Made by a program: the position numbers and the translations under genes
Shown here: one piece after another, positions 498-35,055 of the stretch
Layout of the letters: each line of letters starts with the position of its first letter
Numbering within the stretch: the stretch's first letter is position 1
Notes under the pieces: model-generated
The model's input: the letters and a program-made list of their open reading frames with translations, nothing else
Databases searched by the model: none
Told to the model about the DNA's origin: nothing
Source of the DNA: Escherichia phage vB_EcoM_G2494
Length of the DNA stretch: 64,000 nt
Strand: one strand, 5' to 3'
Sequence record: MK327935.1

Positions 498-2081
498 ATG
501 AAAACTACCAAAGAACTGATGGAAAAATGGTCCCCGCTGCTGGAGAACGAAAAACTGCCGGAAATCGCAACTGCGTCTAAGCAGAAACTGGTTGCTAAAA
601 TTCTGGAATCTCAGGAAGCGGATTTTGCTGTAGACCCGATCTATAAGGATGAAAAAGTTGTTGAAGCATTTGGTGGCTTTATCACCGAAGCAGAAGTTGC
701 TGGCGACCACGGTTACGATGCATCCAAAATCGCCGCAGGTCAGACCACTGGTGCAATCACCAACGTAGGTCCGGCTGTTATCGGTATGGTTCGCCGTGCT
801 ATCCCTAACCTGATCGCATTTGATATTTGTGGCGTTCAGCCGATGAGCACTCCGACTAGCCAGATCTTTGCAATCCGTTCTGTATACGGTGGCGATCCGC
901 TGAAATCCGATGCTCGCGAAGCATTCCACCCGATGTTTGCGCCGGATGTATATCATAGCTCTCTTGCCGCTAAAGACGCAACCGCAAGCTCTCCGACTGG
1001 TACTGCATTCCAGAAACTGCAAAACAGCCAAGCAATCAACGAAGGTGATATTGTATATCACGTATTCGAACAGACTGGTATTGCATATCTGCAAAACGTT
1101 AAAGGTTCTACCGTAACACCTACTCAGGCGGGAGATACCCTTGATGAATGCGTAATGAAGCTGATCGAAAAAGGCGAACTGGCTGAAATTGCTGCTGGTA
1201 TGGCTACTTCCATCGCTGAATTGCAGCAAGGGTTTAATGGTTCTCAGAATAACCCGTGGAACGAAATGTCAATGCGTATTGACAAACAGGTTGTTGAAGC
1301 GAAATCTCGCCAACTGAAAGCCCGTTACTCTATCGAAGTTGCGCAGGATCTGCGTGCTGTACACGGTATGGATGCTGACGCTGAACTGAATGCTATCCTG
1401 GCTAACGAAGTTCTGCTGGAAATCAACCGTGAAATCGTTGACGTCATCAACTTTACCGCTCAGGTTGGTAAGACTGGTATGACTCAGACCGTTGGTTCTA
1501 AAGCTGGTGTATTTGACCTGCAAGACCCGATCGATACTCGCGGTGCTCGTTGGGCTGGTGAATCCTTCAAATCTCTGATCTATCAGATCGACAAAGAAGC
1601 TGCTGAAATCGCTCGTCAGACTGGTCGCGGTGCTGGTAACTTTATTATCGCTTCCCGTAACGTTGTAAACATTCTGGCTTCTGCTGATCAGGGTATCAGT
1701 CTTGCTATGCAGGGTGCTGCACAGGGTCTGAACACCGACACCACTAAAGCTGTTTTCGCTGGTGTTCTGGCTGGTAAGTATAAAGTATTCATCGACCAGT
1801 ATGCTCGTCAGGACTACTTCACCGTAGGTTACAAAGGCGACAACGAAATGGATGCTGGTATCTACTATGCTCCGTATGTTGCTCTGACTCCGCTGCGTGC
1901 AACTGATCCGCAGTCTTTCCACCCGGTTCTGGGCTTCAAGACTCGCTACGGCATCGGTATTAACCCGTTTGCAGACAGCAAATCCCAGGCACCGTCCGCT
2001 CGCATCACCTCCGGTATGTTGAGCAAAGACAGCGTAGGTAAAAACGCATACTTCCGTCGTGTATGGGTTAAAGGTTGCTAA
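498..2081 (+). CDS. 23: major capsid protein gp23
   Basis: 527 aa; long collinear identity to T4 gp23 recalled from memory (e.g. GPAVMGMVRRAIPNLIAFDICGVQPM, GKNAYFRRV C-terminus). Confidence 0.97.
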   Translation: MKTTKELMEKWSPLLENEKLPEIATASKQKLVAKILESQEADFAVDPIYKDEKVVEAFGGFITEAEVAGDHGYDASKIAAGQTTGAITNVGPAVIGMVRRAIPNLIAFDICGVQPMSTPTSQIFAIRSVYGGDPLKSDAREAFHPMFAPDVYHSSLAAKDATASSPTGTAFQKLQNSQAINEGDIVYHVFEQTGIAYLQNVKGSTVTPTQAGDTLDECVMKLIEKGELAEIAAGMATSIAELQQGFNGSQNNPWNEMSMRIDKQVVEAKSRQLKARYSIEVAQDLRAVHGMDADAELNAILANEVLLEINREIVDVINFTAQVGKTGMTQTVGSKAGVFDLQDPIDTRGARWAGESFKSLIYQIDKEAAEIARQTGRGAGNFIIASRNVVNILASADQGISLAMQGAAQGLNTDTTKAVFAGVLAGKYKVFIDQYARQDYFTVGYKGDNEMDAGIYYAPYVALTPLRATDPQSFHPVLGFKTRYGIGINPFADSKSQAPSARITSGMLSKDSVGKNAYFRRVWVKGC

Positions 2082-2166
2082 TATAAGCCAATTCCTGAAA
2101 ACTCCGGTCGGGTGCAATACCCGACTTATCATAAACCTTATGACAGTGTAAAGTGTTAATTCCAAA

Positions 2167-2196
2167 GGGAAGACTCGAAAGGGTCTTCCCTTTTTG
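2167..2196 (+). terminator. rho-independent terminator after gene 23
   Basis: gggaagac-tcgaaagg-gtcttccc hairpin followed by TTTTT. Confidence 0.75.
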
Positions 2197-2580
2197 CGTA
2201 TTATATCCCGTTATAAATAAGGTTGCAAGCCTATATTCTATTGGGAGCGAAAATAGATACACACAACAAAGACAGGAAGATGCAGAACATCGGTGGGTTG
2301 CTAGCCTAAATCCGGTGGCTATAATATGTGATTTCTTTTGATGCTGGATTTATTAAAACACAACAAACAATTCCACCAATTTTCGTAGTAACTGCATGGC
2401 AAAGGGACAAATGAATGAAATGAGCGTTCATGTTGATATTGGGTCGGATAGATTTTGTAGATATACAGATCTGGTGTATGCCGACCTTGTTATGACATTC
2501 CAGCGTGACGCTAGCGGTAATTTTTGGTTTTGGTACGCTGTTCCCTGAATTAACCCAAAATTCTCCATAAGGAGGAATGC

Positions 2581-2733
2581 ATGAGTAAGAAAGAAAACAG
2601 CTATGTTATGACTCGTAAGGAATACAACGAATTGATGTTAGCATTAGCTTATGCAATTATTCGTTCTGATCATGCAATTAATCTGGTAAACAAAGTTAAC
2701 CGTAGCGTTGATAATGTTTCTAGGAAGAAGTAA
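2581..2733 (+). CDS. small hypothetical protein (50 aa)
   Basis: ATG preceded by AAGGAGG; clean 51-codon frame; followed by hairpin terminator. Confidence 0.45.
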   Translation: MSKKENSYVMTRKEYNELMLALAYAIIRSDHAINLVNKVNRSVDNVSRKK

Positions 2734-2742
2734 GTTTATTTT

Positions 2743-2770
2743 GGAATCCTTCGGATTCCTTTTTCTTTTT
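2743..2770 (+). terminator. rho-independent terminator
   Basis: ggaatcc-ttc-ggattcc hairpin followed by T-run. Confidence 0.6.
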
Positions 2771-2772
2771 GT

Positions 2773-2780
2773 ATAAATAT
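2773..2780 (+). promoter_or_regulatory. T4-type late promoter TATAAATA for gene 24
   Basis: tataaata about 37 nt upstream of the gp24 ATG at 2817. Confidence 0.65.
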
Positions 2781-2816
2781 GATATATCCATTAAGGCAAA
2801 TACAGGATTCATAAAC

Positions 2817-4058
2817 ATGACTCATATTTTTACTGAACTGTTGCGGGAATCTACTTCCTCAGTAGCTAACCAGACAGCGCGACCGCAACTATTATCATTA
2901 ACTCGCGCGGTAAACAACCTGATTTTCTCTGATCTGGTAGCAATCCAGCCAACGGATCAACCAGTATCTGCATTGTACGGCCTACGTTATCTTAATCGTG
3001 ATGGTCAGATGACTTTCCGAACTGCTGCGACCTACGGTGGCGCGGCTGGTGATCGCACAGAGATTGAAGAGTTTTCAAAAGAAAAATCTTATGACGAAGG
3101 CGCACTGTTCAAATCAGGCGATGTTGTATACGAAGTTGTGACCGCTGGTACAGTCGGTGAAGATGCCGAAACTCCAGAATCTGCAATCTTTAAAGGCGTA
3201 ATGACAAACAAAATTCGTTTCTATAGCGATTGTGCATCGGTAGAATACTTTGAAGATAAAAACACCGAAATTGCGTCTACCTCTATGCAGTTTGACAAGT
3301 GGCAAGTTAATGTAGGTTCTCGTAAACTGAAAACCTCGTTCACCACTGAATTAATGCAGGATCTTGAGGCAAGCCAAATCAACTCTGAAAACTCTGTAAT
3401 TGATCTTCTGGCTACTGTTGCTTCCGAAGAGATCAACAAAGATATTATTCAGAAGTTGATCACTGTATCATCTCGCTATAAAATTAAAGGGATCACCCCT
3501 GATGGCGTACTTTCTCTCGTTAGCGTTCAGGATGCACCAACACAATCGCGTGAACTTTACCGCTATGCTTGCGAGATGAGCAATCAAATGTTGCGGACTT
3601 CCTCCTTTGCTGGTACATACGTTTTGGCGTCTTCTCGCGTGGTTGGCCTCCTGCAATCATCCGGTTGGATGGAAGAAACCGACAATGCTCTAAGCGAAGG
3701 TCGTCTACGTTGCGGTCTGGAAGTGTACGCAGACACGACAACACCTTTCGATTATATGCTCGTTGGTTGTAAGCACATGATCGGTGATATGGAGAGTGTC
3801 GGTTCTCTGTTCTACTCCCCATATACAGAAGCCGACGGCGCTGGCGCGTATAAGAGCGTAATTGACCCTAATAGCTTCCAGCATCATGTAGCTATTATGA
3901 ATCGTTATTCACTCTCTGTCAACCCATACACATCAAAAGTTGATCAGGAAGAACACCAGGTCATCAAGGGTGACGATTGGGGTAAAATGGCTGGACGTTC
4001 AGAAATGTCCTACATTTTAGGAATCGAACTGCCACCACTTGAGATTGACAACGCTTAA
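2817..4058 (+). CDS. 24: capsid vertex protein gp24
   Basis: Collinear similarity to T4 gp24 (ELLREST start, C-terminal MAGRS motif); true ATG at 2817, the ORF-track start at 2769 is a TTG. Confidence 0.93.
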   Translation: MTHIFTELLRESTSSVANQTARPQLLSLTRAVNNLIFSDLVAIQPTDQPVSALYGLRYLNRDGQMTFRTAATYGGAAGDRTEIEEFSKEKSYDEGALFKSGDVVYEVVTAGTVGEDAETPESAIFKGVMTNKIRFYSDCASVEYFEDKNTEIASTSMQFDKWQVNVGSRKLKTSFTTELMQDLEASQINSENSVIDLLATVASEEINKDIIQKLITVSSRYKIKGITPDGVLSLVSVQDAPTQSRELYRYACEMSNQMLRTSSFAGTYVLASSRVVGLLQSSGWMEETDNALSEGRLRCGLEVYADTTTPFDYMLVGCKHMIGDMESVGSLFYSPYTEADGAGAYKSVIDPNSFQHHVAIMNRYSLSVNPYTSKVDQEEHQVIKGDDWGKMAGRSEMSYILGIELPPLEIDNA

Positions 4059-4646
4059 CTAAATATCTAACCAAGACAAGTCAGATCCGCCAAAGATTTT
4101 TTCGACGGCGGATCTATTTTCTTGATGATATAAGTTAAAACATGGTATCCCATGTCTACGGGCAACATAAACAGCAATTCTAGTTCCTCCCGAAACGATT
4201 CCATTAACTTCTTTCGCCCAAAATATCACACAATCTACAGGGTCATCAAGTGTCTCACCTAAGACTTGAGCAACATTTCTAGAAAACAGATTTTGCATGT
4301 ATAACGGTATAGAACGAGGATTATCATAAACGTGTTCTAATTCATCCATCGCCAGATTTTTTTGTTCTAAGGTTTGCCATGCAATCACATCATGACCGTT
4401 ATGCTTGTGGTCATAAAACTTCCAATTTGGAATGAAAATTTTTCTATAATCTGGATCGTAATACTTCATGAAAGCATTGTCCATACCGTAAGCCCCTCCA
4501 GAATGCGCTACAACGCGATTTTCTGACAATACCCTCCCAATGGTACTAGCCATTATCAAAATGTCGCTAGGCGCTTTTCTAGAGCCTATTAAAGCACATC
4601 TACGAAGTGGTTTTACTCCAAATAGATCTTGTAACTGGTCAAACAT
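4059..4646 (-). CDS. SLOG/DprA-like Rossmann-fold protein (195 aa)
   Basis: GSR motif (res 21-23) and SGGAYGMD (res 49-56) typical of the DprA/Smf-LOG (SLOG) superfamily; ATG start. Confidence 0.5.
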   Translation of the reverse strand: MFDQLQDLFGVKPLRRCALIGSRKAPSDILIMASTIGRVLSENRVVAHSGGAYGMDNAFMKYYDPDYRKIFIPNWKFYDHKHNGHDVIAWQTLEQKNLAMDELEHVYDNPRSIPLYMQNLFSRNVAQVLGETLDDPVDCVIFWAKEVNGIVSGGTRIAVYVARRHGIPCFNLYHQENRSAVEKIFGGSDLSWLDI

Positions 4647-4771
4647 AATATTTCCTCCATAGAAAGCAATATCATACTACAAGTTAATAACAAATACAAG
4701 TATCCGCGTAGCGGAAGCGAGCACAGCGAGCAATAAAAACACTTCCAGTAATTGATTAATAAATGTTCGAA

Positions 4772-4825
4772 ACAAATTTTTATTATTCTATAAGATAAGT
4801 CTTCGTTTTGATCATAATTTAATCA
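4772..4825. repeat. intergenic dispersed repeat, copy 1
   Basis: acaaattttt-attattcta...cttcgttttgatcataatttaatca; related to 4925-4974 and to reverse complement of 57378-57420. Confidence 0.6.
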
Positions 4826-4924
4826 CACATGTAAAAACTACACAAAAGGATATCGCTTCGCGAACTCCTACGGAGTATAACATTTGTGTTACAATATGTA
4901 GTGATTAATAATTAACCAAAGATA

Positions 4925-4974
4925 CATTTTCTATGTTCTAAAGATCTTTCTTCGTTTTGATCATAATTTAATCA
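4925..4974. repeat. intergenic dispersed repeat, copy 2
   Basis: ttctaaagatctttcttcgttttgatcataatttaatca; about 90 percent identical to reverse complement of 57378-57420. Confidence 0.6.
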
Positions 4975-5027
4975 AACAGTATTAATATCGTGCACATGTA
5001 AACTAAAATTATGTTAATAACATATAC

Positions 5028-5054
5028 AAAAAAAGCCGCCCCGAAGGACGGCTA
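5028..5054 (-). terminator. rho-independent terminator (minus strand)
   Basis: A-run then agccgcc-ccgaagg-acggct hairpin on plus strand, i.e. hairpin plus U-run on minus strand after gene 5062-5499. Confidence 0.55.
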
Positions 5055-5061
5055 ATGTTAA

Positions 5062-5499
5062 TTATTTGTTGATAACGATCTGATTTCGGCGAATGGTAAC
5101 ATTACTCTTAGAGATGATCAGATCATCCGGCACTACGTTAGTTTTGTATGGTTGGAAGCGAACAAGCATCTGATTGCGTTTAGACCCTTCCTTAATCTTG
5201 ATTTCCATCTGGATATTGTTGCCTACGTGAGCAACCGCAATTTCACCTTTATTCTCATAGACCCACTTGCTGGTAACGTCTCCAGCAAAAGCCTTAATAA
5301 CTTGCAATGCTTCGTCGTATGCGGTAGAGCTGTGAACTTTCAGAAGGCCAGCCGTAGCAAGACGGGAGCAGGTGATCGCCGGAGATTGCCAAACATCAAC
5401 ATTAATTTGCTCAATCAGAGTAACACCGCCCTGATCAACTGCTTTGAATGCTTCGAACATTGCCTTTTTCATTGCTACGTGGGTTTTACGGAATTTCAT
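5062..5499 (-). CDS. hypothetical protein (145 aa)
   Basis: ATG with AGAGGTG SD; no recognisable motif. Confidence 0.6.
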   Translation of the reverse strand: MKFRKTHVAMKKAMFEAFKAVDQGGVTLIEQINVDVWQSPAITCSRLATAGLLKVHSSTAYDEALQVIKAFAGDVTSKWVYENKGEIAVAHVGNNIQMEIKIKEGSKRNQMLVRFQPYKTNVVPDDLIISKSNVTIRRNQIVINK

Positions 5500-5545
5500 A
5501 ATTAGTCACCTCTATTGATTAGTTATTCAGAATATTAATTACAAA

Positions 5546-5821
5546 TCAGGACATTGCCCGTTTGAATGCGTCCATTATAACAGTGTTATTTGGCTTGTCA
5601 ACACGTTTTTGAACTTTATTTTTAAATTTTTTGTTGATGTGGTGTTTACGATAAACAACCTTTTCACGGTTGGCGTAAGCCTCGCGTGCATCTTTTACCA
5701 TCAACCATGCCTTAGCCGCATCTTGTCCGCTGATCCCGCCAATCTTTTTAGCAATATCAACAAAATTAAGACCGTGGTCTTCTCGTAGCATGTAAACCAT
5801 TAACGCTGTTTTCTTGTCCAT
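5546..5821 (-). CDS. hypothetical protein, possible helix-turn-helix (91 aa from internal ATG)
   Basis: ATG at 5821 overlaps the TGA of upstream ORF (ATGA-type coupling); ORF-track start at 5929 lacks an SD; start uncertain. Confidence 0.4.
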   Translation of the reverse strand: MDKKTALMVYMLREDHGLNFVDIAKKIGGISGQDAAKAWLMVKDAREAYANREKVVYRKHHINKKFKNKVQKRVDKPNNTVIMDAFKRAMS

Positions 5822-6018
5822 CACTTCGCCCCATTGACGATTAACAGGATAGTGATCAGCACCGGAAACTGGATCATGATAGTGCCAATAAACCGGATAA
5901 ACGCATTTTCTGACTTCCACACATGACATGCGACTAGCTGATATACCATTGTTGCCACCAAAGCCAGAAAATACATCTCGATTGGTGTTTCTTTGATCAA
6001 TCGTACAATCTCATTCAT
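5821..6018 (-). CDS. small membrane protein (65 aa)
   Basis: GAGGTG SD 4 nt upstream of ATG; two hydrophobic segments. Confidence 0.45.
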   Translation of the reverse strand: MNEIVRLIKETPIEMYFLALVATMVYQLVACHVWKSENAFIRFIGTIMIQFPVLITILLIVNGAK

Positions 6019-6183
6019 ACTTCACCTCATACATTCATAAACACAACAACGAATAGGACAGTAACAGTTATCAACGCCATTTTCAACCCCACATTCATAA
6101 TATTTTCTTCGCCTCACTATGGACAGTAGCATGTCGATGTGTGCCATTATAGGCATCTAAATCGCTCTGTCAAGCACAAAAAC

Positions 6184-6208
6184 AAAAAAGCCACCCCGAA
6201 GGATGGCT
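6184..6208 (-). terminator. rho-independent terminator (minus strand) after hoc
   Basis: A-run plus agccacc-ccgaagg-atggct hairpin on plus strand. Confidence 0.5.
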
Positions 6209-6219
6209 GATATATTTCA

Positions 6220-7434
6220 TTAAGCAGGATGCATTTCACGAATGCGTAGAACTCGCTCTAACGTCTCTCGGTCCAGTTTATGTAACTCTTTGGAATGATA
6301 CATGAAACCATTGCGAGATTCCATGCAAGTGCAATCACTATATTTTTCTTCCGCTGCCGCGATTGTCTCCAGATCTTTGGCGTACTTGCTTGTTGAATAA
6401 ACTTCTCGATCACGCCACTCTAACCCAGCCTCATTGAATTTAACAATCTCGTCAAATACCCACCATCCAATGTAGATAAATGAAGTTTTGCGCCACGGGA
6501 TCGGGTGTACGTAACGAAACATTTTAACAACTTCCATCGAACATTTTCGGCTTGTACTTGCTGCAACTTCTACTGTTTCATCTTCGATCTGTTGATATAG
6601 TTTAGCAACACACCAGAATTTGGCTGTGTCATCGTAAGTAGCACTCTCTTTGAACAGATGACCGTCTGGAGTGATAGAAAATCCTTCCAGTGCTTCGCCG
6701 ACCTCACTACCGATCAGAGTCGGTGACATTTGCCCTTCGCGCTGCAAATACCAGTTATATTTGATCGTCAAATTAGGCATACCGCTAGAATCGCCTACAA
6801 TGTTCTCTGACACAACATAATTAAGTAAGATCTCATTACCTAGTGCCACGGTCTTTGATTCCACCACATCCTGATCTAAGTTCATTGTTGCCAGCATTAT
6901 TTTAGTCGATGCGCTAGCGGCTGAATCTTCCGACTCACCCCACACTTTTACAGTATACACGCCGTTTTTATCTGCTGTAAATTCTTGGATTGTAATATCT
7001 TTTTTTGTGTCTATAACGTCTTCGCCCTTACTCCAACTATAATGTAGTTCATAGTTGTCTGCTGGAGTCTTCCCACCAGAAAATTTTACTGTTGCATGTA
7101 ATTCTACGTCTGTTTGTGATGATACGTAGAAATGCTGCGGTTCGGTGATATTTACGATTAATTCAGCTTCTTCCATGAGAAAAACTTCAGATTCTACTGA
7201 TTCCATCGTATCGGTATCCTGTACCGTTACTTTATAGATACCCGCATTTTCACTTGTTGCGTCTGCTACAGATAGCGTAGCTGTGCTATTTTCATGTGGT
7301 TGGTCGTCTTTTGTCCATGTATATGTCAAATTGCTGGGTAATGGTTCGTCACCCGATACAGTCGCCGTTAAGGTGAAACCATCGCCAGCAAGAAAACATC
7401 TTTTGTCAGATTTAATTGATACTGTGAAAGCCAT
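6220..7434 (-). CDS. hoc: highly immunogenic outer capsid protein Hoc (Ig-like domains plus capsid-binding C-terminus)
   Basis: 404 aa; C-terminal YVHPIPWRKTSFIYIGWWVFDEIVK ... ESRNGF matches the T4 Hoc capsid-binding module. Confidence 0.8.
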   Translation of the reverse strand: MAFTVSIKSDKRCFLAGDGFTLTATVSGDEPLPSNLTYTWTKDDQPHENSTATLSVADATSENAGIYKVTVQDTDTMESVESEVFLMEEAELIVNITEPQHFYVSSQTDVELHATVKFSGGKTPADNYELHYSWSKGEDVIDTKKDITIQEFTADKNGVYTVKVWGESEDSAASASTKIMLATMNLDQDVVESKTVALGNEILLNYVVSENIVGDSSGMPNLTIKYNWYLQREGQMSPTLIGSEVGEALEGFSITPDGHLFKESATYDDTAKFWCVAKLYQQIEDETVEVAASTSRKCSMEVVKMFRYVHPIPWRKTSFIYIGWWVFDEIVKFNEAGLEWRDREVYSTSKYAKDLETIAAAEEKYSDCTCMESRNGFMYHSKELHKLDRETLERVLRIREMHPA

Positions 7435-30596: not shown

Positions 30597-31070
30597 TTAC
30601 TCCTTATTTTCGCGCTCGTACTTTTCGAAATAAAATTCTACTGGCTGGTCGTGGATTGACAGTAAGCCAAAGCGTTTAGCCGCTCGCAATCCCATATTGC
30701 GCTGAATGTACTTCTGGAAGTTCTCGCGTATACACTTACGCCAGTATTCTAAGCCCATACAGCTTTTGTAAAGATTGCATTGCACACAAGCCGGATTCAT
30801 ATTATCAAGTATATCGTGCTCCGGTTTATGCATTCCTACAACCTTATACTTCCACGATCCATCATCATTACGGGCAATTCGTCCATTTTCATCATAGACT
30901 ACCTTTGAGCGTCGCAATACTGGTTTGATGTGGTCTGCGTGCCATCGGTCCCCTAGTTCCTCGCCACAATAGGCACAACGCCCACCGTATTTCATTTTCA
31001 GGATCTGGCGTTGCTCTTTCTTTGACAATTTTTTAGGTTTAGGGGCTTTCGCCCCTTCATTATCACACAT
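30597..31070 (-). CDS. free-standing HNH endonuclease (157 aa)
   Basis: CAYCG ... HADHIKP ... CVQCN HNH/zinc motifs. Confidence 0.65.
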   Translation of the reverse strand: MCDNEGAKAPKPKKLSKKEQRQILKMKYGGRCAYCGEELGDRWHADHIKPVLRRSKVVYDENGRIARNDDGSWKYKVVGMHKPEHDILDNMNPACVQCNLYKSCMGLEYWRKCIRENFQKYIQRNMGLRAAKRFGLLSIHDQPVEFYFEKYERENKE

Positions 31071-32559
31071 CGAATACCTCTTTTACTGTATTTGCAGTGG
31101 TCTTGTCGTAGCGAATACGTTTGATGATCGGGAGAAATAAAGAGAACTCCGGTTCATCTTCTTTACGTGATTTGCTGCGGATATACCCGTTGCATGTCAT
31201 CTCAATGACTTTTCCAATCAGGTTATGACGGTCAGCCCATAACATTTCTCGGTCGAGTTCATTTCGACGATCGAACGGAATTACACGTTCAGTACCATCA
31301 TCACCTTTTTCGGTTGTAGTGTCGGTTAATCCCGATCCGGTGTTAGTCATCATTCGTCCGCACGCACTACGGACAGTAAAACCGCCTACCTTATTGGGGT
31401 CTTTACTATGCGGATATGCATCAACAATTTCCGCGTCGAAGTCAATCACTTCTTTAAATTTAACCTGATCTTTACTACGGCGATCTTCAAATACACCATG
31501 TAAATTTTTAAGGATAATACCTTCTAAGCCCATGTTTACATAGCGATGATATACTTCGCGAGCTTCATCGATATTGTTAACTACAGTGTTTTCGATTATC
31601 TGAACACGAGGATCGTTAAGTTCTTCAACAATCTGTTTTAGTTCTTCGAATCGATCTTTATATTGCTTCGTTGCTTTCTCGTTTCCGTAATACACATCAC
31701 GGTCGATAACATCCCAGACAGTGTAAACAATACATTGGGCTTCTTCTTTTGGAATAGTTCCTTTAAGTGATTTGTTGAGGATACCATTTCCGGTCTGACG
31801 ATCTGCAACAACGGATTCTTTCACTGCTTCCGCTACTGGCGTTAATGGCATTTCCTCTTCTTCAAATATCCATGACAGAGTACCATCATAAACGCTTTCA
31901 ACGAAGTTCTGCGCTGGTGTTTGCGAAAGGGTAGGCATATATACCAATTCGCCATCTAGAACAATTCCACGGCCTCGTAGACGCTCTAAAACCGCAAACA
32001 AATCATCAAGTCCTTGATAGGTATTACCTGAGCGGGTATAGATTGCTAATGTTTCCCCGTCAATATCAGCCATACCACGAGCGCCATCGCTTTTAAGTTG
32101 TGCATACGCCGGATACTTGATATTAGCAATAGTCTTATCAGAACATGACGATGCAAGGTGGCACGGCTGCTGGGGGATCAGTTTCTTCCATACCTTGTTT
32201 GCAGTGGTAGCGGAACAACCGCATTCCAGGTCACGATTCAGGACCATCATTGCAACTTTAGCATCATCTTCTGACAAGCAAGTCAGAGTATCGGTAACTA
32301 GCTGTAATGCTGCATTACCAGTTACTTGACGCGTGGCAAGTTTATTTTTAAAGACCTGCAATGCACCGGATAAAGACAATACAGACGAATAACGCGATGG
32401 TTTATCGTATTTCTTTACGCCAAACGTAACCTGTTTGCAATATGCCAGATAAAAGCATTCTTTCAGCGTTTCATTGCTCGCGGATTCTTTCAGAATCTTT
32501 TCTTTCAGCGATGTTTTGTCTGTTGTTGCAAGCTGATTAATGATATTAAGAATTGACAT
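31063..32559 (-). CDS. 30: ATP-dependent DNA ligase gp30
   Basis: KSDGAR adenylation motif (QLKSDGARG), collinear similarity to T4 ligase; ATG at 32559 with GAGGTG SD (track start GTG at 32565). Confidence 0.9.
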   Translation of the reverse strand: MSILNIINQLATTDKTSLKEKILKESASNETLKECFYLAYCKQVTFGVKKYDKPSRYSSVLSLSGALQVFKNKLATRQVTGNAALQLVTDTLTCLSEDDAKVAMMVLNRDLECGCSATTANKVWKKLIPQQPCHLASSCSDKTIANIKYPAYAQLKSDGARGMADIDGETLAIYTRSGNTYQGLDDLFAVLERLRGRGIVLDGELVYMPTLSQTPAQNFVESVYDGTLSWIFEEEEMPLTPVAEAVKESVVADRQTGNGILNKSLKGTIPKEEAQCIVYTVWDVIDRDVYYGNEKATKQYKDRFEELKQIVEELNDPRVQIIENTVVNNIDEAREVYHRYVNMGLEGIILKNLHGVFEDRRSKDQVKFKEVIDFDAEIVDAYPHSKDPNKVGGFTVRSACGRMMTNTGSGLTDTTTEKGDDGTERVIPFDRRNELDREMLWADRHNLIGKVIEMTCNGYIRSKSRKEDEPEFSLFLPIIKRIRYDKTTANTVKEVFDV

Positions 32560-33025
32560 TTTCACCTCGTTTTGTTAAACGTTCACGAATATCATTGAGG
32601 ATACTACAAAATTCCGATTCAGTCAATATAGTCTTTAACGGATCTGTTCCACCTATACTATGACGCAATTTCTTATTTCCTGTAGCGAGTAATGCTTTAC
32701 AAAATTCTGGGTTATTCCGTGCCATCGTAACAAATGCCAGATGTACCAGTCTGTAATAATGCTCACTCATTCGATGAATCGGGCGACCCTGAAAATATAA
32801 CATGTGATTCTCAGTCTTTTCAGTTCTTCCGGTTCTTTTTGCTTTGCCACCGTGCATCAAAAAGATTTCTCTTTGTCTCTGAGGGTTCTTAAATCTTAGC
32901 CCCTGTAAAAATCCTTCTGTGCTGTTAATATCGCAACCAAATAGACGGAATGGTCTTTTATTGAAGTTACTCAATTCACCAGATGGATAAGGTCCACCCG
33001 CATAGATATCAATTTCAGAAGTCAT
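32546..33025 (-). CDS. NADAR (YbiA/DUF1768)-like protein (159 aa)
   Basis: GELSNF ... INSTEGFLQGLRF ... CKALLATGNKKL resembles YbiA FSNF ... TSEHYFQAQKF ... LRALLLAT pattern. Confidence 0.5.
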   Translation of the reverse strand: MTSEIDIYAGGPYPSGELSNFNKRPFRLFGCDINSTEGFLQGLRFKNPQRQREIFLMHGGKAKRTGRTEKTENHMLYFQGRPIHRMSEHYYRLVHLAFVTMARNNPEFCKALLATGNKKLRHSIGGTDPLKTILTESEFCSILNDIRERLTKRGENVNS

Positions 33026-33621: not shown

Positions 33622-34233
33622 TTATTTATATTTCGCGACCTTTGGATTTCGCCGCAGACCGGAATGTATTTGCGCTATACAACAATAAGAAACATTAAAC
33701 ATATCAGCTATAATTTGCTTCTTAACTTTTCCTTTAAGCCGCATTATTTCTTCGACTTGCGCATTTGTCAGTTTTGCCCGTGAGTGGTTTTCACCGACAT
33801 TGTTATTGAGTCCAGTTCTAAATGAATGTCTCATATTTTCTAGTAAGGTTACTATTTCTAGATTCCACACATAATTGCAGGTTTTTACACCATTGATGTG
33901 ATTAACCTCAAGTCCGGTAACGTCTCCTAGAAATGCATTTGCTACAAGTCGATGTATCTTTTCGGCTTTAACTGAGATTTTACCATTGTCGTTTTGTTTT
34001 GACAATGTTGAATAATAATATCCATATCGGTCTAAAATTGGTTTTATTATTTTACCAGCACGTTTTTGCTTTACGAGCTTAATATTACCGGGAGAAACTT
34101 CTCTATAAAATTCGATACTTCGGTCAATAGATCTCAATCTACCATAATTAGAGATTTCATACCACGGATAACCTACAGCTTGTCTCCATTCTTCCGGCGC
34201 TGGTAATATGATATTATCATCTTTTGTTTCCAT
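33622..34233 (-). CDS. HNH homing endonuclease with NUMOD4-like N-terminal motif
   Basis: EWRQAVGYPWYEISNYGRLRS and HRLVANAF ... VNHINGV ... NLE; ATG at 34233 (track start TTG). Confidence 0.7.
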   Translation of the reverse strand: METKDDNIILPAPEEWRQAVGYPWYEISNYGRLRSIDRSIEFYREVSPGNIKLVKQKRAGKIIKPILDRYGYYYSTLSKQNDNGKISVKAEKIHRLVANAFLGDVTGLEVNHINGVKTCNYVWNLEIVTLLENMRHSFRTGLNNNVGENHSRAKLTNAQVEEIMRLKGKVKKQIIADMFNVSYCCIAQIHSGLRRNPKVAKYK

Positions 34234-34235
34234 TG

Positions 34236-34556
34236 TCAACTGCCACCATGAATTTCGACGATCTGCGCTGGTGTTAAACCGTCTACATTAATCAGACTAT
34301 CAAGCCCAAAACTACAGAAACCTTCAACTGCAATTTCATATACTGGCAAAGATGTTTCTGATTCTTTACGCGGTTTTTCAACATTAGGAACTAACCACTT
34401 TTCGTATGTTTCGAAAGGCATCAGTGCCGGATCTCGCGTGGCGATCATCTCACGGACAGTACCATCTTTCTTAGTAAACTGCAAAGAGTGAGTACCGACC
34501 GAAAACATTTTCTTTAGTGCTTCACGAAGTGCGATATTATCAACTTGTTCAGTCAT
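34236..34556 (-). CDS. hypothetical protein (106 aa)
   Basis: ATG at 34556 (track start TTG). Confidence 0.5.
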   Translation of the reverse strand: MTEQVDNIALREALKKMFSVGTHSLQFTKKDGTVREMIATRDPALMPFETYEKWLVPNVEKPRKESETSLPVYEIAVEGFCSFGLDSLINVDGLTPAQIVEIHGGS

Positions 34557-35055
34557 TATCAATACCCTTCAAATCAGTCAATAATGCTTTTGGAATACGC
34601 GTGATCGTAATATCTGCATTATTCAGAATATCAGCCCAATCACGCCCACCATTTCGATCATATGTGTCGCAATAGTATAAATGTTTAATTCCACTGTTTG
34701 CAATTGCTTTAGCGCAATCTGGACACGGTGAAGCAGTACACCACATACTAGCGCCTTCAATCGATACACCGCTACGGGCAGCAAACAAAATAGCATTTAA
34801 TTCAGCGTGGATCTCGTTTTTCTGTGACCATGCACTATGCTCTGGTCGTTTTTCTGGGATCATTTTTCCTTCATCATCCAGCCAACCGCTTTTATGTGCA
34901 TGACAGCTACAGTTTTCTTGTCCTGCTGGAGTGCCGTTAAATCCAGTAGAAATGATTCGCCCGTCTTTTTCGATCAGTGCGCCTACCTTCCACGAAACGC
35001 ATTTAGAGTTCTTTGCGATTAGATAGGCGATCTGCATGTAAGTTTGTGACAACAT
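34549..35055 (-). CDS. cd: dCMP deaminase
   Basis: HAELNAI and PCPDCAKAI zinc-binding motifs. Confidence 0.88.
   Translation of the reverse strand: MLSQTYMQIAYLIAKNSKCVSWKVGALIEKDGRIISTGFNGTPAGQENCSCHAHKSGWLDDEGKMIPEKRPEHSAWSQKNEIHAELNAILFAARSGVSIEGASMWCTASPCPDCAKAIANSGIKHLYYCDTYDRNGGRDWADILNNADITITRIPKALLTDLKGIDND

Follow-up and report, generated by a model that had tools for sequence, protein, structure and literature searches.

A phage-encoded DprA-type SLOG protein beside gene 24 of a Krischvirus belongs to a widespread stand-alone family

The structure of Helicobacter pylori DprA (HpDprA) with single-stranded DNA (ssDNA) defines two signature ssDNA-binding motifs, G-S/T/A-R and F/L/Y-x-x-R-N/D. 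The substitutions R52E and R143E lower ssDNA affinity 315-fold and 173-fold, respectively, and Tyr108, Asn144 and Gly164 touch an inserted thymine; proteins of the LOG type are marked by the motif PGGxGTxxE (PMC3950713). Viral SLOG domains have been predicted to sense or degrade soluble ADP-ribose-derived immune signals (Iyer, Burroughs, Anantharaman and Aravind 2022, PMC9503650). Here we describe a gene at positions 4059-4646 (minus strand) of a 64,000-nt stretch of Escherichia phage vB_EcoM_G2494 (record MK327935.1), the whole of which is called the window below and which derives from a Krischvirus (RB49/Phi1-type T4-like coliphage). The gene encodes a stand-alone DprA-core, SLOG-fold protein of 195 amino acids (aa), orthologous to Phi1 ORF164 and belonging to PHROG 768. 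A first-pass annotation of the window, made from the sequence alone, had proposed for it either a recombination mediator or a nucleotide-signal sponge or hydrolase. Both are published predictions (PMC7824862 and PMC9503650, respectively); a common phage gene carries two incompatible literature predictions, that of an ssDNA binder and that of an ADP-ribose-signal processor.

The open reading frame (ORF) at 4059-4646 is a real gene under purifying selection, because a Shine-Dalgarno sequence, GGAGG, can be read at 4654-4658 (minus strand), 7 nt before the ATG (4646-4644), and the ratio of nonsynonymous to synonymous substitution rates (dN/dS) against four relatives is 0.05-0.13, with one relative at 86% aa identity and a dS of 0.75. 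Over bases 3500-5600, the window shares 99.9% identity with vB_EcoM_G5211 and about 99% with Phi1, GEC-3S and ECD7, and the locus is present at a nucleotide identity of at least 90% in 58 phage records. The 195-aa protein itself is 100% identical to the vB_EcoM_G5211 protein and 99% identical to ‘DprA-like’ proteins in RefSeq, where Phi1 ORF164 (99% identical) is named ‘DprA-like DNA recombination-mediator protein’; the name of the same form carried by PHROG 768 / VOG1369 derives from homology. The PHROG 768 ‘DprA-like’ profile matches residues 15-186 on profile positions 4-180 of 191 (E = 3e-60, 204 bits), the invariant residues of that family (GSR, SGGAxGxD, RNxxQxLG, GGT and IPxxN) are all found in the window protein, and the best matches among viral models are phage ‘DprA-like’ or Phi92_gp047-type proteins. 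The first-pass annotation had arrived at DprA/SLOG from two short motifs, GSR at residues 21-23 and SGGAYGMD at residues 49-56. Both are exact in the ORF, on the minus strand, which had not been given, and the assignment is borne out by the PHROG 768 match and by a sub-threshold match to Pfam DprA. The identification was already in RefSeq and PHROGs and hence is not new; the gene had been annotated before and is a commonplace representative of a family widespread in phages.

By tblastn, this family was found in 1,330 of 50,697 phage records, or about 1 in 40 sequenced phage genomes. Its carriers include T4-, T5-, N4-, phi92- and Pakpunavirus-like phages, among others. Querying a word index with the one protein returned only 6 matches, and a related-locus search from it gave three near-identical loci; an exhaustive profile search and a 50-sequence profile were needed to recover the family. 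The exhaustive search yielded 4,319 clusters at 50% identity, nearly all of them stand-alone proteins of about 180 aa, and the 50-sequence profile yielded 2,657 clusters at 90% identity on phage-sized contigs.

The Rossmann/SLOG fold expected from the motifs is present in the AlphaFold2 (AF2) model of the protein (predicted local distance difference test (pLDDT) 82, predicted template modelling score (pTM) 0.80), which predicts a Rossmann-like three-layer alpha/beta arrangement matching solved SLOG structures (clan CL0349), and the top 10 Foldseek matches are all DprA. Among 50 family members, the nearest Pfam family was DprA for 38 (weak matches) and LOG, YpsA or YAcAr for none. The profile searches that had been proposed as a check gave a divided outcome for the window protein. 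Pfam DprA (PF02481) was matched at 22.2 bits, below the gathering cut-off of 29.6, over residues 15-60 only and with the alignment beginning at model position 45, and LOG (PF03641) was matched neither by the window protein nor by 50 relatives. The NCBIfam dprA equivalog TIGR00732 scored 14.3 bits against a cut-off of 191. Escherichia coli Smf is co-linear with the window protein through four blocks (GSR; SGLARGID; PRRNRIISGL; SGSLVTA...FALPG). In profile-profile comparison, whether the target was E. coli Smf by itself or an enterobacterial DprA profile built from 14 sequences (68-99% identity, too shallow), significant similarity was limited to the first ~48 columns (E = 8.5e-4), ending at column 58. 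SAM and C-terminal winged-helix domains were not found in the 195-aa protein, the DprA domain itself measuring about 205 residues. The domains of E. coli Smf are PF02481, PF17782 and PF25317, and none of the extra ones is in the window protein, for which the AF2 model predicts a single helix after the last strand. The designation ‘a DprA’ proper was rejected because the SAM and C-terminal domains are absent and the curated thresholds are missed; ‘DprA-like’ is right. The protein is a DprA-type SLOG core, its fold demonstrated by the structural comparison, and is referred to here as mini-DprA.

Residue conservation was counted in a family alignment of 141 members, and codon positions are all on the minus strand. 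G21-S22-R23 (4578-4586) constitutes the G-S/T/A-R motif of DprA (G 140/141, S 125/141, R 138/141), aligned by phmmer and hmmsearch to HpDprA G50-T51-R52, with R23 corresponding to Arg52. S49-G-G-A-Y-G-M-D56 (4479-4502) is the glycine-rich SLOG loop (DprA ‘SGxAxGID’), aligned to ‘SGGALGVD’ of HpDprA and ‘SGLARGID’ of Smf, and its residues S49, G50, A52, G54 and D56 are invariant or nearly so. L120-F-S-R123-N124 (4275-4289) fits the other DprA motif, F/L/Y-x-x-R-N/D (L 115/141, R 140/141, N 135/141) and is predicted to lie within a helix at 115-129, ahead of the strand at 139-142 that forms the fourth core strand of the model; MAFFT and extended hhalign place R123-N124 on Smf R211-N212 with low confidence. 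G153-G154-T155 (4182-4190; GGT in 140/141) is the loop that starts the last pocket helix. DprA has ‘SGS’ at this point (HpDprA Gly164) and the LOG motif its ‘GT’; in the phage protein no Glu comes after the loop. Invariant or near-invariant residues comprise G21, S22, R23, P26, S49, G50, (G51), A52, G54, D56, F59, P73 and F77 in the N-terminal half, and L120, R123, N124, Q127, L129, G130, P136, G153, G154, T155, A158, A162, I167, P168 and N171 in the C-terminal half. Among them, R23, S49, D56, F77, R123, N124, Q127, G153-G154-T155 and N171 make up a near-invariant polar pocket, which has the residue patterns of the two motifs by which HpDprA clamps one base and the neighbouring phosphates of ssDNA.

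The first-pass annotation had taken the motifs as the signature of DprA/Smf and LOG-type domains alike; the DprA-type half of that statement holds and the LOG-type half does not. PGGxGTxxE is absent, the stretch in question reads S-G-G-T-R-I-A-V, and Ala158 (134/141) occupies the position of the catalytic Glu, so a LOG-type hydrolase was rejected. Because Ala replaces the catalytic Glu, LOG-like hydrolase chemistry is unlikely for the phage protein, and this is all that the window finding adds to the RefSeq/PHROG annotation.

Gene neighbourhoods were sampled at 28 loci, window phage included, and ligases are among the recurrent associations. In CC31, K65_evo1 and CHI14, the mini-DprA gene lies between rnlB (Rnl2-type) and gene 24 and overlaps the rnlB stop codon, and in Roth27 an RNA-ligase/DprA-like pair is found at a different genomic site. 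Translational coupling to Rnl2 extends over four T4-like lineages (L002:2506-4055 (CC31), L025:1491-3046, L029:1494-3052 and L026:1453-3043). In the T5-like phages AAS21 (L003:4001-5520) and PM135 (L027:2483-4113), the gene overlaps the start of NAD-dependent DNA ligase subunit A, and in Chazly21 (L034:854-3973) it sits between NAD-dependent DNA ligase subunits A and B. Coupling to the ligase A/B cluster, or a place within it, is seen in 3 of the 4 T5-like genera sampled; in the remaining one, that of Vibrio phage X1, an annotated RNA ligase lies one gene from the DprA-like gene. PS24 has an ATP-dependent DNA ligase three genes off with a RecB-like helicase adjoining. Other neighbours include SSB (flopper and Pokken), ribonucleotide reductase (RNR), dCMP deaminase, thymidylate kinase/dUTPase, MazG-like enzymes and PhoH. 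No neighbour gene conserved across phage groups was found, and the downstream genes of PS24, SD2 and DSS3phi2 belong to unrelated PHROGs. The ligase coupling, which is not mentioned in the literature searched, is the one observation here that may be new, and it concerns sister phages and not the window.

These neighbourhoods also bear on the placement of the window gene at the T4 rnlB position. Its synteny next to gene 24 was upheld, but a substitution for rnlB was not, the gene being coupled to rnlB in sister genera: because CC31, CHI14 and K65_evo1 hold both side by side, mini-DprA is a neighbour of rnlB and not its replacement. A disguised RNA ligase was rejected as well, there being no ligase motif and no profile match (no RNA-ligase Pfam match at E ≤ 10). 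No similarity was detected between the window protein and RnlB of CC31, K65 or Roth27, and the 64-kb window contains no RnlB homologue. The absence of a KxDG motif, remarked on earlier, was confirmed (no K.DG pattern), but motif I of the Rnl2-type ligases (gp24.1 in T4) has the form KxHG, reading EKIHG in CC31, K65 and Roth27, and not KxDG. We note that GenBank MW748999.1 (vB_EcoM_Skers) calls the orthologue of the DprA-like gene ‘putative RNA ligase’; since the protein resembles ligases neither in its motifs nor in profile searches, this label is apparently a positional transfer from T4 rnlB.

The family is mostly stand-alone, and its rare fusions, in which the motifs are intact, are to NADAR, DUF4326 and RecJ. 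The RecJ partner is complete (DHH-DHHA1-OB). NADAR fusion was found in four proteins, of which two are polyvalent proteins of ~1,480 aa that also carry YAcAr and LDcluster4 SLOG domains, and further fusions to HNH, 3'-5' exonuclease and SF1 helicase have been listed (PMC9503650). A metagenomic contig (Logan SRR12487045, L013:2348-4440) encodes the operon Macro (weak) - DUF4326 - NADAR::DprA-like SLOG, which is a compact ADP-ribose-reversal gene set with a DprA-like SLOG. T4 gp30.3/AdfN, the sole phage NADAR tested, strips DarT1 ADP-ribose from phage DNA (PMC11825919). The window encodes a gp30.3 homologue of its own (32546-33025, minus strand; Pfam Phage_30_3, E = 7e-39), which overlaps a DNA ligase gene (31063-32565, minus strand) and through which the phage probably resists DarTG1.

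The reading that we favour, with a probability of about 0.42, is that mini-DprA is a non-catalytic accessory of phage repair that binds single-stranded nucleic acid. Its pocket would hold single-stranded nucleic acid, probably as a dimer like DprA, and the protein would shield single-stranded regions and strand breaks in phage DNA, or possibly RNA, or offer them to repair enzymes. Candidates for such enzymes would be ligases, nucleases that process ends, and DNA de-ADP-ribosylases, the phage’s own gp30.3/AdfN among them. Such a protein would not be a classical RecA loader, and in Krischvirus it would work alone, from a gene whose own upstream region drives its transcription and which lies on the other strand from the head genes. 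That the pocket holds a base of ssDNA or ssRNA is suggested by the identity of its motifs with those of DprA, taken together with fusion or coupling to RecJ, to NADAR/AdfN-type domains, to three kinds of ligase and to SSB.

Several observations weigh against this reading. Beyond the N-terminal ~48 residues, homology to DprA is not significant, and the second motif is equated with that of DprA through co-linearity and alignments of low confidence. The isoelectric point (pI) of the window protein is on the mildly acidic side, 6.4 against a family median of 8.6, and basic residues common in the family are lost from it (R48 to H, K118 to Q and K119 to N); both features tell against all DNA-binding readings of this particular protein. 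No ligase is nearby in 18 of the 28 neighbourhoods, the window phage among them, and early and middle DNA-metabolism genes of phages cluster anyway, so that context is weak evidence. The multi-SLOG and NADAR polyvalent proteins and the Macro - DUF4326 - NADAR::SLOG gene order fit a small-ligand reading equally well, and no binding or genetic experiment on any family member was found in the literature.

The coupling described above also allows a more committed proposal, in which mini-DprA works specifically with the nucleic-acid ligases of phages, Rnl2 in T4-like and the split NAD-dependent DNA ligase in T5-like phages; we consider it rather unlikely. What mini-DprA would grip is the ligase substrate, single-stranded or nicked, or else an end that is 5'-adenylated or carries base damage. 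The two would make up a break-repair or counter-defence module not recognised before, and Krischvirus would keep the binder alone. If true, this would open to experiment the in vivo role of T4-type RNA ligase 2, which has long been obscure.

The main rival to the repair-accessory reading, doubtful in our estimation, is a counter-defence binder or processor whose SLOG pocket sponges or cleaves an NAD+/ADP-ribose-derived immune signal, for example a cyclic ADP-ribose (cADPR) isomer. This is the explicit prediction of PMC9503650, and it would accommodate the NADAR fusion, the Macro - DUF4326 - NADAR::SLOG operon and the ~1,480-aa proteins in which the domain stands beside YAcAr and LDcluster4 SLOG domains. 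The conserved pocket residues (R, D, R-N, Q, T and N) are typical of small-ligand sites, and Roth27 has a gene for nicotinamide phosphoribosyltransferase 1.3 kb downstream. However, sequence and structure are closer to DprA than to ThsA or YpsA, the missing LOG catalytic Glu makes N-glycosidase activity unlikely, and phage NADAR, the main fusion partner, acts on ADP-ribosylated DNA and not on soluble signals (PMC11825919). A soluble ligand would leave the RecJ fusion and the ligase coupling unexplained, and the family occurs in replication and nucleotide-metabolism modules rather than in obvious anti-defence islands. SLOG/DprA-like proteins go unmentioned in two large 2025 phage-sponge screens, and the experimental literature searched holds no phage SLOG/DprA-like sponge or anti-defence protein. 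Action on free (deoxy)nucleotides, for example by an N-glycosidase or transferase with a non-LOG active site, would suit the recurrent neighbours dCMP deaminase, thymidylate kinase, dUTPase, RNR, MazG-like NTP pyrophosphohydrolase and carbamoyltransferase, yet no single one of these metabolic neighbours is conserved, no known catalytic motif of LOG proteins or deoxyribosyltransferases is present, and the nearest characterised relatives, DprA and ShosA, are non-enzymatic binders, all of which makes a nucleotide-metabolism enzyme decidedly unlikely.

Two further explanations start from the likeness to bacterial proteins with known partners. A classical recombination mediator, the role implied by the RefSeq name, would load a recombinase (UvsX or host RecA) on the ssDNA that it binds and so act in addition to UvsY; we judge it unlikely. 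The DprA likeness in fold and motifs speaks for it, phage DprA homologues have been suggested to serve as an extra ssDNA-binding protein in recombination (PMC7824862), and uvsW and uvsY lie ~4 kb and ~8 kb, respectively, from the DprA-like gene. Against this, the phage already has UvsY, none of the 28 neighbourhoods has an adjacent recombinase gene, and the RecA-binding and dimerisation surface of DprA is formed by C-terminal helices that, judging from the model, are largely absent here. Carriage by T5-, N4-, phi92- and Pakpunavirus-like phages, whose recombinase content was not compared, also argues against a tie between the family and T4-type recombination genes. By analogy with AdfN, an orphan antitoxin of the NADAR type, it is conceivable, though very improbable in our view, that mini-DprA mimics ShosA or PsyrA and would neutralise ShosTA/PsyrTA-type defence. 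Phage orphan antitoxins have that precedent (PMC11825919), ssDNA binding is required for the antitoxin activity of ShosA (PMC12961424), and PADLOC returns weak matches to PsyrA (E = 4e-5) and ShosA (E = 3.5e-4). Those matches span only the shared motif region of 45 N-terminal residues, however, and the protein is no nearer to ShosA than to ordinary DprA. ShosA requires its SAM domain, dimerisation and RecA binding, whereas the SAM domain is absent here, and presence in 1,330 phage records from many hosts is broader than one rare defence system would select. Settling the function would assign a very common phage gene, either as a new accessory of ligases and DNA de-ADP-ribosylases or as a new class of immune-signal antagonist.

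At the locus itself, the DprA-like gene and gene 24 are convergent and their stop codons abut. Upstream on the same strand as the DprA-like gene are ORF165, a 24.3-like DUF2774 gene, hoc and inh, with uvsW beyond them on the opposite strand. ORF165 (5062-5499, minus strand; 145 aa, PHROG 15652, no Pfam match) takes up the site of rnlB in sister genera. The final ~20 codons of the DprA-like ORF contain, on the plus strand at 4072-4124, a strong hairpin with a U-rich run after it (minimum free energy -23.8 kcal/mol, z = -5.25, 0/200 shuffles as stable), and ‘terminator’ features are annotated here in related GenBank records. This element, at a convergent junction with zero gap, probably terminates the late gene 23-24 transcript, in which case a coding sequence and an opposite-strand terminator overlap. 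The intergenic region upstream of the DprA-like gene (4647-5061, minus strand) is unusually long, at 415 bp, and presumably carries the gene’s own promoter. A terminator scan placed a GC-rich terminator-like hairpin at 5034-5053 (minus strand), after ORF165, and the region contains direct repeats at 4792-4829 and 4941-4978 (38 nt, 89%, including an exact 25-mer) and a second pair at 4683-4699 and 5013-5029. No convincing sigma-70 (minus strand), T4-late (TATAAATA) or MotA-type site was found in these 415 bp, and an Rfam scan of 2000-6300 gave chance-level matches only. The region may correspond to the PeSL promoter/stem-loop cassettes, shuffling elements described for RB49/Phi1 (PMC2839356). 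Elsewhere in the window, the DNA ligase/30.3 pair is bracketed by HNH-type endonuclease genes at 30597-31070 (minus strand; HNH) and 33622-34239 (minus strand; NUMOD4+HNH_3), which are likely homing endonucleases, and past the HNH genes lie a small WYL_2 protein gene (34236-34562) and then cd, pseT and rnlA.

Among described systems, PHROG 768 / VOG1369 (Phi1 ORF164, Phi92 gp047) is the window protein’s own family, stand-alone and carried by virulent phages; compared with that family at large, the Krischvirus branch is more acidic and has an N-terminal extension of ~15 residues, with no structural difference. Bacterial DprA/Smf (PF02481; 4LJK/4LJR of H. pylori, 3UQZ of Streptococcus pneumoniae and 3MAJ of R. 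palustris) is a three-domain protein of about twice the size, whereas the window protein is phage-encoded, has no known RecA link and contains a family-specific segment at 73-115 (‘LPWxGFN’ in most members). From LOG/PpnN and the ThsA SLOG sensor of type I Thoeris it differs in having no catalytic Glu, no YpsA (DUF1273) or YAcAr profile match and no effector-domain fusion. The antitoxins ShosA and PsyrA (ShosTA and PsyrTA; PDB 8ZVA) have the DprA-type SLOG core in common with it, and the function of ShosA centres on ssDNA binding. The viral SLOG domains of PMC9503650 resemble the window family in being fused to NADAR, in lying near DUF4326 and Macro and in occurring in medium and large phages; that study puts most viral SLOG domains in a YpsA-like clade, whereas here the nearest relatives by profile and fold are DprA.

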